Sequence record: MT862763.1
DNA length: 40,294 bases
Direction: 5' to 3' (one strand)
Origin: Escherichia phage vB_EcoP-U8
The notes below the pieces were generated by a model. It ran no database searches and had not been told where the DNA came from. It saw nothing but the letters and a program-made list of their open reading frames with translations. The position numbers were made by a program, and so were the translations under genes. Positions 31,881 through 36,921 of the stretch are shown here, piece after piece; position 1 is the first letter of the stretch, and the number at the start of each line of letters is the position of its first letter.

Positions 31881-32080
31881 CCTCCATGTTGGTTCAGGAA
31901 CTTGGTGCCAGCAGCGGTAATCTCCCACGCACCGTTGTTACGCCCGTCCATAGACAGACAGCTCAGATGTCCACGACTCGCAGCCTCAGCCACCAGTGCC
32001 GCATTGTTGCGCACGTAGTTGGACTGGAAGGTCTTCGGGCAGGACTTAAGGGCCGCTAGGACCCGTAAGTATTCACTCAT
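31871..32080 (-). CDS. gp5.7-like protein
   Basis: 69 aa; MSEYLRVLAALKSCPKTFQSNYVRNNAALVAEAASRGH nearly identical to T7 gp5.7 as recalled. Confidence 0.85.
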   Translation of the reverse strand: MSEYLRVLAALKSCPKTFQSNYVRNNAALVAEAASRGHLSCLSMDGRNNGAWEITAAGTKFLNQHGGCL

Positions 32081-32370
32081 TGCTTGACCTCGAATCGCAG
32101 GTTAGATACTCCGAACTGGTCATAACCAAAGTCGTCTACCAGCTCCTCCTTGATGGTCTTCTTGAGGGCAATTTCAAGGGCAGACTCAGGGCCTGACTCG
32201 ATTGCGGTTTTGACCAGAGCCAACTGAAGACCATCCAGCTTCTCACCCTCAGCGTAGGCTTTAGTCATCTCAGCCAGTTGGCGACACATGGTATCTTCTT
32301 CCTTTGAGTTAACAACCATCTTCAGATCAAAACTCACACGAATACGTTTAGTAATAGCCATTAGTGACAC
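32077..32370 (-). CDS. gp5.5-like protein (H-NS-binding protein family in T7)
   Basis: ATG at 32368-32370 with SD AAGAAGGAG; MAITKRIRVSFDL...EVKQ resembles T7 gp5.5 as recalled. Confidence 0.8.
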   Translation of the reverse strand: MSLMAITKRIRVSFDLKMVVNSKEEDTMCRQLAEMTKAYAEGEKLDGLQLALVKTAIESGPESALEIALKKTIKEELVDDFGYDQFGVSNLRFEVKQ

Positions 32371-32786
32371 TCCTTCTTAACAAGTTTGCGCTCACGGTTC
32401 GTCTTAATGACGTGTTCGCGTTTTGGAATACACTGTAGATGCTCTATGTTGCAGCACCCACGGTTCAAGCACAAATGGTCTATTTCGTAGCCATTTGGTA
32501 TAGGTCCGCGCCTCTGCTCCCACACCCATCGGTGGAACATGAAGGCGAACTTGTTGCCCTTCCTGTAGCTTCCCATGGAGTACCGGAAGTACCCATCTTG
32601 GTTCCTCTTGTGGGACACGCAGACGATACATCCGGTAGGCATGGTGTGGAAGCGTAGGGTCTGGGTTCGAGGGTCAATGACACTCTTTCCACGTTGGTCC
32701 AATCTTACCCTCCGTATCAAGTTCACACTTGAAGTTATAGAAGCGTCCGACCTCGCGCATCGCCTCTTGAGCAATACGGACGACAT
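32361..32786 (-). CDS. HNH homing endonuclease-like protein overlapping the 3' end of the DNA polymerase gene
   Basis: HRWVWEQRRGPIPNGYEIDHLCLNRGCCNIEHLQ HNH motif; ATG at 32786 has SD GGAG, overlapping pol by 113 nt in another frame; an internal Met at 32642 has no SD. Confidence 0.75.
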   Translation of the reverse strand: MSSVLLKRRCARSDASITSSVNLIRRVRLDQRGKSVIDPRTQTLRFHTMPTGCIVCVSHKRNQDGYFRYSMGSYRKGNKFAFMFHRWVWEQRRGPIPNGYEIDHLCLNRGCCNIEHLQCIPKREHVIKTNRERKLVKKECH

Positions 32787-34845
32787 CTTCTGCTATCTCC
32801 TGAGTACGGCACGCTATCTGCAATTCATCGTGAATCCAAGCCATTAGCGCAAAGTCGCCGTCCCATCCGTTACCGTAACCAGCCTCTTCAAGTTTCTTCT
32901 CAGTCAGTACCATCCAGTGCTTACAGACAACCGCACCGTCCCCCTGAAGTAGGGCGTTAAGTGCTGAGTGTGGAGACCGGATGTGAATACGACGACCATC
33001 CAGACCTTTCAGCCAGCGACGTTTCCACTTGACGATATTCTCACCGTCCACCCACTTAGAGTCTGAGATTAACGTATTACTCACAGCTTCCCTGAGGTCC
33101 TTGATGGCTGGTGTACCCTCAATGAATTTCTTCATCAGAGCTGAACCTTCCTTCTTACCACCGCCTACTATCAGTCCAATCTTAGCGGCCCCTGCACCAT
33201 ACAGGAACGCGTAGATGAACGTCTTAGCGTTGTTACGGAAAGCCTCATGGTCGTGGTTAGACTTATCGCGTTGGACGTTAGGTGCTAACCCAGCGTTTAC
33301 TGCGTTGGCCCAGTGGATGTCACCTTCTACCACAGTCTTCGCATATGCACCACCATCAAACGGAGCCGCTCTGTTCCCAAGACAACGAAGCTCAAGACCT
33401 GAGGCATCCACACCAACTTGAATCCAAGGGTCTGGCTTACCGTCCTTCTTGTTCCACGCTGCACCGAAAGCACCACGGCAAGTCTCACCATATGGAGCAC
33501 CGTTAGCCGGGACCTGAGCCATGTTTGGTGAACTATGGGTCGCACGTCCGGTTACTGCCCCGCATGGGTTTATTGAGCCGTGCATACGTCCGTCTGGACC
33601 TACAAGTTTCAACCATGCGTTCTTACCTTCAGCAGCCTGACCGATGCGCTTCTGGACGACCAGATATTCACGGACCAGCTCTACGCAAGCCTGAGCCTCT
33701 GCGTCTGGTAACTTAACGTGTTCTAACGTCTCGTCATCGACTACAGGTTTCCCGGTGTCAGTGAAGTCTACAGGCTCCCAGCCACGCTCCATCAGGACTT
33801 TCGCTAAGTGGTCTCCGCTTCCCGGATTAAACTCAACGTAAGTGATTGGCGTGAAAGGCGCTCCTTCCATCGTGTCTCGCGTATCACGCTCACAAGGTTC
33901 AAGACCTAAGCGTTGAGCTTTGTTCTTCGGCTTCTTAAAGATGCCACCGACCTTAGGATACACGACTCGCGGATACTTCGGAAGGTCCTTGCCAGTCCGT
34001 GGGTGCTTGAAGAACTCCTTGCCTCCCTTTGGTGCGTACCAGCTACCGAAAGTCGAACGCAGCTTGTCCAGCAGCTCTGCACGTTTGACGGTTAGTTCAC
34101 GATATAAGCCTTCGACCATCTCGGTGTTCATCGGATAGCCGTTACGTTCCATCTTCGCACAGGTCCACGCAGCATCATGTTCCAGACGCAACGCATAAAT
34201 CTGGTCGAAAGCGAACTGTTCAGACTGGAAGTAATACTTGTCAGTCAGGAACTTCTTGAACAACGCCAGTGTGACCACAACGTCCTGAACGTTATAGTCC
34301 AGCATCTCCTGAGACGGGAACAACCATTCGTCCCCAGCCTTATATTCGATACCTTCTGCCTTGCACTTGGCAACGTAATCGTGTTTGTACTCACCCTTCA
34401 TCTCACCGAGACGATAACCCCAAGCCTCAAGAGACTGGCGTCCCATCATCTTAGGAGGCAGACGACCAGCTTTCACCGCGCCCATGTCTGAGAACTTAAT
34501 GTTGGGATACATCAAGCGACCCAGCACCAAGGTATCAATCATCTTGTGTTTCGGGAAGTTAAAGCGTTTCCCGAAGTACAGACGCTTCAGCTTGTCAATA
34601 GCCGGGACGTCATAGTTGATACCGTTGTGGAATACCAGCATACCATCAGGTGATGCGGCAATCTCTTCCACCTTCTGCACATACTCTTTGAAGCCACCGA
34701 CGATACCGACCATCGGAGCTACCCCATACTTAAGGGTCTCATTCGACTCGGCGTTAATCAGGACCCCACAGTGAAACTGGGAGACTGTATCAAGGAGACC
34801 GTTGGTCTCGATGTCAGAACCCCAGATACTCTTAAGGTCAAACAT
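32674..34845 (-). CDS. DNA polymerase (T7 gp5-like, family A with 3'-5' exonuclease)
   Basis: Collinear with T7 gp5 as recalled; start set at MFDLKS (GGAGG SD) rather than ORF-track start 34881; ends ...KECH. Confidence 0.97.
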   Translation of the reverse strand: MFDLKSIWGSDIETNGLLDTVSQFHCGVLINAESNETLKYGVAPMVGIVGGFKEYVQKVEEIAASPDGMLVFHNGINYDVPAIDKLKRLYFGKRFNFPKHKMIDTLVLGRLMYPNIKFSDMGAVKAGRLPPKMMGRQSLEAWGYRLGEMKGEYKHDYVAKCKAEGIEYKAGDEWLFPSQEMLDYNVQDVVVTLALFKKFLTDKYYFQSEQFAFDQIYALRLEHDAAWTCAKMERNGYPMNTEMVEGLYRELTVKRAELLDKLRSTFGSWYAPKGGKEFFKHPRTGKDLPKYPRVVYPKVGGIFKKPKNKAQRLGLEPCERDTRDTMEGAPFTPITYVEFNPGSGDHLAKVLMERGWEPVDFTDTGKPVVDDETLEHVKLPDAEAQACVELVREYLVVQKRIGQAAEGKNAWLKLVGPDGRMHGSINPCGAVTGRATHSSPNMAQVPANGAPYGETCRGAFGAAWNKKDGKPDPWIQVGVDASGLELRCLGNRAAPFDGGAYAKTVVEGDIHWANAVNAGLAPNVQRDKSNHDHEAFRNNAKTFIYAFLYGAGAAKIGLIVGGGKKEGSALMKKFIEGTPAIKDLREAVSNTLISDSKWVDGENIVKWKRRWLKGLDGRRIHIRSPHSALNALLQGDGAVVCKHWMVLTEKKLEEAGYGNGWDGDFALMAWIHDELQIACRTQEIAEDVVRIAQEAMREVGRFYNFKCELDTEGKIGPTWKECH

Positions 34846-36842: not shown

Positions 36843-36921
36843 TGGCGTCTCCACGGGGATTCGAACCCTAATCGCAATAGGCCATCACGACCCGCCGCTC
36901 TACCGTTTGAGCTATGGAGAC
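36843..36921 (-). tRNA. tRNA-like gene (anticodon arm atypical; possible anticodon CGU)
   Basis: RC: GTCTCCA TA GCTC AAACGGTA GAGC ... TAGGG TTCGAAT CCCCG TGGAGAC G CCA; perfect 7-bp acceptor stem, U8, canonical D-arm, T-loop and CCA; anticodon stem imperfect and region 3 nt longer than standard. Confidence 0.6.

Follow-up and report, generated by a model that had tools for sequence, protein, structure and literature searches.

Phage T3 gene 5.3 is reportedly a functional free-standing homing endonuclease that spreads into empty sites, and Bonocora and Shub, writing in Curr Biol in 2009 (19:223), a paper that PMC10448857 and PMC3984707 cite, are said to have found that its product, gp5.3, cleaves polymerase genes that have no intron, and does so where the homologous intron-encoded I-TslI cuts. 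Here we analyze an HNH endonuclease gene in Escherichia phage vB_EcoP-U8 (MT862763.1), together with a short motif from the end of the polymerase gene that recurs at the end of the HNH gene. The window, i.e., the whole stretch of 40,294 nucleotides (nt) that was analyzed, reads as a complete ~40.3-kb genome of a Kayfunavirus (T7-like, Studiervirinae), and the genes of the locus lie on its minus strand in the order gene 5 (DNA polymerase), HNH, gene 5.5, gene 5.7 and gene 6. Sequence comparison identifies the HNH gene as an ortholog of gene 5.3 of phages T3 and phiYeO3-12, a family of free-standing HNH homing endonucleases. We consider it quite probable that it is such an endonuclease gene lodged between genes 5 and 5.5 and that the repeated motif owes its origin to homing.

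The window copy resembles gene 5.3 of T3 and phiYeO3-12 in its product (84% identity, 82/98 residues to T3 gp5.3, E = 5e-66), in its position at the gene 5/5.5 locus, in its HNH_3 domain, in its patchy presence among relatives and in its linkage to the 3’ end of the polymerase gene. Unlike the T3-type gene, which has its own GGAGG, ATG (MGGVATLRFH…) and stop (…KLVKK*), the window copy has lost all three. The intron-encoded HNH proteins (I-TslI of phiI/W31 and gp19B of K1F) are likewise homologous, with 47% identity between the K1F copy and the window protein (E = 7e-34), and share the same putative WVH|DE site; they differ in being embedded in an intron, whereas the polymerase gene of the window is uninterrupted, and their carriers keep WVH where the window has WIH. 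An earlier note on this stretch had linked the gene to homing in polymerase introns, and both identities make that link an apt one.

Comparison extends to more distant systems. Intronless homing of free-standing endonucleases, with co-conversion from a distant cut, has been described as a concept (PMC10448857, PMC3984707). Like SegF, SegG and MobE of phage T4, the window gene stands free beside an essential replication gene, with a flank of a few hundred nucleotides that is co-inherited, and stands at a boundary of mosaic exchange; unlike them, it belongs to another enzyme family (Seg enzymes are GIY-YIG) and another phage lineage, and its co-conversion is inferred from haplotypes, not from crosses. 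Within the genus, Hafnia phage Ca has a 397-bp HNH homing endonuclease indel between lysis and terminase genes, a cassette whose start and stop overlap its neighbors’ stop and start and which is present or absent in near-identical genomes; it differs from the window gene in its locus and in its HNH protein, and no duplicated host-gene terminus is reported for it (PMC8861465). Short direct repeats on either side of an inserted segment also recall transposon target-site duplication, but the window repeats are imperfect (12/15), appear to come from two polymerase alleles and assort independently, and no transposase or terminal inverted repeats are involved at this locus.

What we describe is accordingly a known kind of element at a known locus, and a set of refinements of a known family rather than a new kind of system. 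New are the relic polymerase terminus, the start that the gene has putatively captured, its linkage to a polymerase block and the role predicted for Ile/Val; a literature search, which did not take in the primary homing papers, returned no paper on a polymerase-terminus duplication in Kayfunavirus or on the other new details.

The polymerase terminus recurs at the end of the HNH gene

Three features define the repeat and the segment it encloses:

32674..32688, minus strand: 5’ motif copy AAAGAGTGTCATTGA, the functional polymerase end, apparently that of the HNH-linked polymerase allele (from alignment and motif count)
32361..32375, minus strand: 3’ motif copy AAGGAGTGTCACTAA, read as a relic terminus from its identity to HNH-less relatives; encodes …ECH* of the HNH protein and the ribosome-binding site and TAATG start context of gene 5.5
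32374..32686 (±~3 nt, shared GAA), minus strand: 313-nt segment lacking in HNH-less relatives (from alignment with MZ234022 and HNH-less IMG/VR contigs)

The polymerase open reading frame (ORF) ends in AAA GAG TGT CAT TGA (32688..32674, minus strand), preceded by TGG, and the HNH ORF ends in AAG GAG TGT CAC TAA (32375..32361, minus strand; stop at 32363..32361), preceded by AAG. The two copies agree at 12/15 positions, and their differences (AAA/AAG, CAT/CAC and TGA/TAA) are all synonymous. As the earlier note had stated, the motif occurs at both ends: the degenerate form AARGARTGYCAYTRA has exactly 2 matches in the 40,294 bases on both strands, namely the polymerase end and the HNH ORF end, while 100 dinucleotide-preserving shuffles yielded a mean of 0.00 and a maximum of 0 matches. 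At the 3’ copy, the HNH stop TAA shares bases with the gene 5.5 ATG (32361..32359) to form TAATG, and AAGGAG lies 8 nt upstream of this ATG, which bears out the further claim that the copy supplies the ribosome-binding site and start of gene 5.5.

Relatives without the HNH gene clarify where the 3’ copy comes from. HNH-less Kayfunaviruses (MZ234022 and >12 IMG/VR contigs) carry a single motif, with the polymerase end …TGG AAG GAG TGT CAC TAATGG. In this terminus (…TGGAAGGAGTGTCACTAATGG) the polymerase stop overlaps the gene 5.5 start and the Lys-Glu codons (AAGGAG) of the polymerase double as the ribosome-binding site of gene 5.5; the type phage K1F has the same polymerase/5.5 overlap. Because the sequence that follows the 313-nt insertion in the window is identical to the HNH-less terminus (over the 21 nt of GAAGGAGTGTCACTAATGGCT), alignment identifies the 3’ copy as a relic of the polymerase terminus from an HNH-less genome with a polymerase/5.5 overlap. 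T3 gp5.3 ends in …KLVKK, and the ECH tail of the window protein is extra to it. In MopsHU1 and Pipis the His codon of the relic has changed to Arg, a replacement never seen at the real polymerase C-terminus in the compared set, suggesting that the relic has been released from polymerase-type constraint.

Since HNH-less relatives carry a single copy and differ by the 313-nt indel, the alignments mark the repeated motif as a genuine footprint of endonuclease-gene acquisition. In this respect the insertion footprint proposed by the earlier note stands; its implied origin in one event does not. Junctions between the HNH gene and its neighbors fall into two classes on each side, the 5’ junction being either of window type (c) or with a native start (b), and the 3’ junction being either the relic KECH* (K) or GGAGAAGACTAATGG (b). 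All four combinations exist: c/K (window), c/b (R1 and the IMG/VR contig L039), b/K (L041) and b/b (pO91). Among these phages the two sides assort independently of each other, which indicates that the two motif copies were not made in one insertion. The earlier note had also named the same arrangement without duplication as a finding that would speak against its footprint, and part of the relatives show just that, with the same HNH gene at the same locus and no duplication in pO91, IME177, ZG49 and R1, as well as in T3-like, Przondovirus and Helsettvirus phages. The window-type junction is found in ~20 records, all of them Kayfunavirus.

What follows TAATG varies from phage to phage, with at least five or six unrelated alleles or additional small ORFs in genomes that have the HNH gene as well as in genomes that lack it, which makes this junction a hot spot of recombination and cassette exchange. 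Extra small ORFs between the HNH gene and gene 5.5 are present in SP7 (L004 1240-1426, 62 amino acids, Cys-rich) and in UFJF_EcSW4 (L037 1240-1398, 52 amino acids).

The polymerase 3’ end is co-inherited with the HNH junction

Linkage to the HNH gene extends into the polymerase gene, where we distinguish three features:

32674..32911, minus strand: polymerase 3’-terminal haplotype block, a candidate co-conversion tract, co-inherited with the HNH junction type (from mismatch profiles and alignment)
32824..32838, minus strand: TGG ATT CAC GAT GAA (W-I-H-D-E), the intron insertion position in relatives and putative endonuclease target (from the end of K1F exon 1 and polymerase alignment)
32835..32833, minus strand: Ile codon, candidate immunity change (from comparison of WIHDE with WVHDE)

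The last ~240 nt of the polymerase gene exist as three haplotypes, which track the junction type. Relative to the HNH-less MZ234022, the window has 1 mismatch in the 461 nt upstream and 27 in the next 228 nt; counted over the last 238 nt of the polymerase gene, the mismatches number 66/238 (28%), and after GAAGGAG they fall to 11 in ~477 nt (~98% identity). Read from these haplotypes, the pattern is the signature of a localized replacement that took in the HNH gene and the polymerase 3’ end, such as co-conversion would produce after a cut in the polymerase gene. The notion that the 5’ copy had been specially recoded has to be given up: the whole of the last ~240 nt is a different haplotype, ~28% diverged from the HNH-less allele, and the 3/15 differences of the 5’ copy are just a part of this divergence.

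The block also contains the position at which relatives carry an intron. In K1F, exon 1 ends in …MAWVH with the intron directly after it, and ten IMG/VR contigs are arranged likewise. WVH is present in all 10 HNH-less Kayfunaviruses, in T7 and in 11 intron-bearing polymerase genes, while all polymerase genes examined that are accompanied by T3-type 5.3 have a variant site: WIHDE in T3, in the 11 Kayfunaviruses of window type and in eight further phages belonging to four genera, and A-F-V-HDE in the native-start Kayfunavirus type. This distribution makes the Ile/Val change beside the intron insertion site a candidate self-immunity determinant.

Penshu1 (MK903281, L005) has no HNH gene, yet the 3’ block of its polymerase gene is of window type and includes WIHDE, and a decayed relic, CAGGAGTAACACTAATGG, is present as well; by these features it looks like a product of HNH loss. 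In place of the HNH gene it has a 105-nt spacer (928-1032) that ends in the decayed relic and showed no similarity to the HNH gene or to any of the fetched loci.

The HNH protein belongs to the T3 gp5.3 family and is under selection

A profile search confirmed the identification of the gene as an HNH endonuclease gene in the earlier note, with a match to Pfam HNH_3 (PF13392) at residues 83-126 of the 141-amino-acid ORF (E = 2.5e-18; 65.9 bits vs. a cutoff of 24.8) and an intact DHLCLNRGCCNIEHLQCIPKREH segment in the D-H…N…H catalytic core. The protein’s 84% identity to its T3 counterpart compares with 59% for the polymerase and 30% for gp5.5 on either side of it, and copies 82-87% identical to it lie at the same locus in Teseptima-, Teetre-, Przondo- and Helsettvirus phages. 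Among close relatives its presence is sporadic, the 313-nt indel separating the window from the near-identical MZ234022. Homology to T7 gp5.3, which had been expected beforehand, was not found (E = 3.4). A sequence search of the PDB gave chance-level matches only (best E = 0.004, to a T-cell receptor chain), and a single-sequence AlphaFold2 model of the 113-amino-acid protein had a mean predicted local distance difference test score (pLDDT) of 36.7, too low for the model to be used.

Window-type copies of the gene have evolved under selection, with a ratio of nonsynonymous to synonymous substitution rates (dN/dS) of 0.03-0.09 and dS up to ~1. Two window-type relatives carry dead copies, SP7 through a 1-nt deletion that shifts the frame (L004 ~nt 990) and KM02 through a change of GGA to TGA (L034 1028-1030), both of which fit the usual cycle of gain, decay and loss.

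A candidate start codon within the polymerase gene

Our analysis of the 5’ end of the gene rests on the following features:

32361..32702, minus strand: HNH gene, preferred coding sequence (CDS) of 113 amino acids from TTG 32702, with a 29-nt polymerase overlap (from HNH_3, T3 gp5.3 identity and start analysis)
32709..32713, minus strand: GGAGG, a putative Shine-Dalgarno sequence formed by the polymerase codons ACG GAG GGT and separated from the TTG by 6 nt (in all 11 window-type sequences)
32643..32673, minus strand: 31-nt linker from the polymerase stop to the internal ATG, open in the HNH frame (…IDPRTQTLRFHT; from comparison with the native start and codon variants)

Besides TTG 32702, possible starts are ATG 32642 (93 amino acids) and ATG 32786 (141 amino acids, not conserved). 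The last of these had been used in the earlier note, which gave the gene a 113-nt overlap with the polymerase gene. The corresponding 141-amino-acid ORF (32361..32786) does exist; its overlap is an artefact of choosing the longest ORF, since the frame between ATG 32786 and the gene is closed in R1 and in IMG/VR L039, both with intact HNH ORFs, and this ATG cannot be the conserved start. GGAGG-N6-TTG 32702 is the only start candidate whose ribosome-binding site is kept in 11/11 window-type sequences; where these have ACG GAG GGT, the codons of HNH-less alleles are ACC/ACT GAA GGT. No ribosome-binding site was found before ATG 32642.

Elsewhere, in other genera as well as in pO91, IME177, ZG49 and IMG/VR L041, the gene has a native start with its own GGAGG and ATG (MGGVATLRFH[KT]MPTGC…). 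In the window type 13 unrelated nt take the place of the native GGAGG and ATGGGAGG, and TLRFHT still stands in frame before ATG 32642; the alignment with the K1F homolog likewise begins ~10 residues before the TGC motif. Across the 11 window-type sequences, the linker shows 12 extra codon variants and 3 extra amino-acid variants in the HNH frame (9/12 synonymous), against 13 codon and 11 amino-acid variants (2/13 synonymous) and 12 and 11 (1/12 synonymous) in the other two frames. Because variation is nearly all synonymous in the HNH frame, the linker is probably translated. Together, these comparisons lead us to favor, with some reserve, a 113-amino-acid product that would start at TTG 32702 and overlap the polymerase gene by 29 nt. 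The ribosome-binding site taken alone is weak evidence for this start, since the coding strand has about as many GGAGG as its composition predicts (53 observed vs. 53.5 expected). GenBank records disagree on the CDS, giving 93, 71 or 113 amino acids or leaving the gene unannotated.

The 13-nt part of the linker that replaces the native ribosome-binding site and ATG (CCCTCGAACCCAG, 32643-32655, minus strand) had no informative match among the 68 fetched loci that could point to its source. Programmed frameshifting from the polymerase into the HNH frame was also considered and rejected, as inspection found no slippery or prfB-like site at CAT TGA C.

Proposed origin of the repeat and alternative explanations

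The origin that we favor follows the example of T3 gp5.3. In a mixed infection, the enzyme would cut the polymerase gene of an HNH-less genome ~150 nt before its stop, where WVH|DE is encoded, and repair from the HNH-bearing genome would copy the polymerase 3’ end along with the endonuclease gene, the carrier’s own polymerase gene being protected by a variant site (WIHDE here). The upstream KECH* would then be the terminus of the polymerase allele that accompanies the endonuclease gene, and the downstream KECH* the old polymerase end of an invaded genome whose polymerase stop overlapped the gene 5.5 start. This relic would have been kept through a right-hand crossover in or just after the 7-nt GAAGGAG common to donor and recipient, which contains the ribosome-binding site of gene 5.5. 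In the window lineage the gene would have lost its own ribosome-binding site and ATG, most likely initiating instead at TTG 32702 inside the polymerase gene, and it would terminate on the relic polymerase stop, such that translation of gene 5.5 would be coupled to the HNH gene and not to the polymerase gene.

Several observations weigh against this account or its parts. The sequence difference between the window and MZ234022 is compatible with gain and with loss alike and does not decide the direction, and two window-type relatives (SP7 and KM02) have inactivated copies. The association of Ile/Val with the HNH gene is confounded by the shared ancestry of the linked block, and b-type copies use a different change (Trp to Phe). 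As for the start, coding sequence will by chance also contain a GGAGG with a start codon after it, and the synonymous variation in TLRFHT could have been imported by recombination from native-start alleles.

Among other explanations for the repeat, coincidence is hardly credible. The motif is just 15 nt long and its copies have 3 mismatches, as might be said for two ORFs that happen to share their last four residues, but zero matches are expected, the HNH-less terminus agrees with the 3’ copy at each of 21 nt, and T3 gp5.3 stops before the ECH tail. A one-step insertion just upstream of the last four polymerase codons, by a cassette carrying a recoded replacement terminus that destroys the recognition site, would explain why the 313-nt insert is flanked by two copies and why the 5’ copy differs at synonymous positions only. 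We nevertheless regard it as improbable, given that the junction types c/K, c/b, b/K and b/b assort independently, that the divergence of the 5’ copy (3/15) matches the ~28% divergence of the entire linked block, and that homology with T3 gp5.3 and the K1F intron places the expected target ~150 nt upstream rather than at the polymerase terminus.

Loss instead of gain deserves more weight than either of these, although we still think it unlikely. The duplicated arrangement would in that case be the older one, and HNH-less genomes such as MZ234022 would stem from deletion between the 15-nt direct repeats, where a crossover in the shared GAA would regenerate exactly …TGGAAGGAGTGTCACTAATGG, or from replacement by an HNH-less donor, and relatives do show decay and loss (a frameshift in SP7, a stop in KM02 and, in Penshu1, no HNH gene but WIHDE and the decayed relic CAGGAGTAACACTAATGG). 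A simple deletion would, however, leave the window-type 3’ block in place, whereas HNH-less genomes carry a different block, ~28% diverged, and the 3’ relic can only derive from a pre-existing genome with a polymerase/5.5 overlap, an arrangement also found in K1F. Deletion between the repeats may account for individual HNH-less lineages; it is no substitute for homing as an account of where the repeat came from. The remaining alternative, that the window copy is an unexpressed remnant whose ORF is merely still open, draws on the replacement of the native GGAGG and ATG by 13 unrelated nt, on the missing ribosome-binding site before ATG 32642 and on the disagreement of GenBank annotators over the CDS. 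A dN/dS of 0.03-0.09 with dS up to ~1, a linker before ATG 32642 that varies almost only synonymously in the HNH frame, and the conserved GGAGG-N6-TTG at hand all make such a remnant a poor prospect.

Homing with co-conversion remains our preferred explanation of the repeat, and its parts can be joined in a more tentative reading, possible but doubtful as a whole, in which the HNH gene is wired into its neighbors at both ends. At its 5’ end, synonymous choices (ACG GAG GGT) would place a ribosome-binding site and TTG within the ten final polymerase codons, read in the +1 frame; at its 3’ end, the last three residues and stop would be the relic polymerase terminus, still driving gene 5.5 translation. 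The ~20-nt relic (GAAGGAGTGTCACTAATGG) could then serve as a portable right-hand homology arm for any Kayfunavirus with a polymerase/5.5 overlap, whichever downstream allele it carries, and the self-immunity determinant would be one G-to-A change, which turns Val into Ile before HDE.

On the homing account, the locus would offer a clean, sequence-resolved case of a homing endonuclease gene reshaping the boundary between two essential/early phage genes, with a duplicated gene terminus, ~240 nt of polymerase dragged along and a downstream hot spot of cassette exchange as the consequences, and would be of use in interpreting mosaicism in T7-like therapeutic phages. It also yields a predicted one-codon immunity determinant (Val/Ile before HDE) for a characterized endonuclease family, which, if confirmed, would help explain how naive, intron-protected and variant-protected polymerase alleles coexist in one phage genus.

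Genomic context and additional observations

Compared with the T7 convention, the window is reverse-complemented and circularly permuted, and the polymerase gene lies only ~5.4 kb from its right end. The studied region has 98.7% identity to Kayfunavirus genomes and matches 244 phage records. The genes that flank the HNH gene are:

32674..34845, minus strand: DNA polymerase (gene 5) CDS, 723 amino acids, intronless, ending in …GPTWKECH* (from the ORF list; Pfam DNA_pol_A, E = 5.8e-38; GGAGG before ATG 34845)
32077..32361, minus strand: gene 5.5, homolog of the H-NS-binding protein, 94 amino acids (from the ORF list and comparison with T3 gp5.5; annotated in relatives)

The polymerase ORF is continuous, and annotations of relatives give the same 2172-nt CDS; the HNH gene lies downstream of the polymerase stop and is not embedded in an intron. 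For the window, no group I intron came up in an Rfam search at gathering thresholds, which also missed the annotated intron of K1F. In K1F (NC_007456, L068), the polymerase intron with its HNH ORF is annotated at 2437-2997 and matched no Rfam family at the gathering threshold; it may be of the IA2 type reported for phiI/W31, with the match to the Rfam model probably disrupted by the embedded ORF.

Outside the locus, the window contains a tRNA-like gene at 36843-36921 on the minus strand, called as tRNA-Thr(CGU) by ARAGORN and scoring 36.7 bits in Rfam against a gathering score of 29 bits. tRNA genes are unusual in T7-like phages. This one sits in the 156 nt that separate the primase/helicase gene from a small gene 3.7-like ORF, in a spacer that is at least 95% conserved in 33/35 matching Kayfunavirus records, and its annotation in Kayfunavirus records is inconsistent, appearing as tRNA-Thr, tRNA-Pseudo, tRNA-OTHER or nothing.

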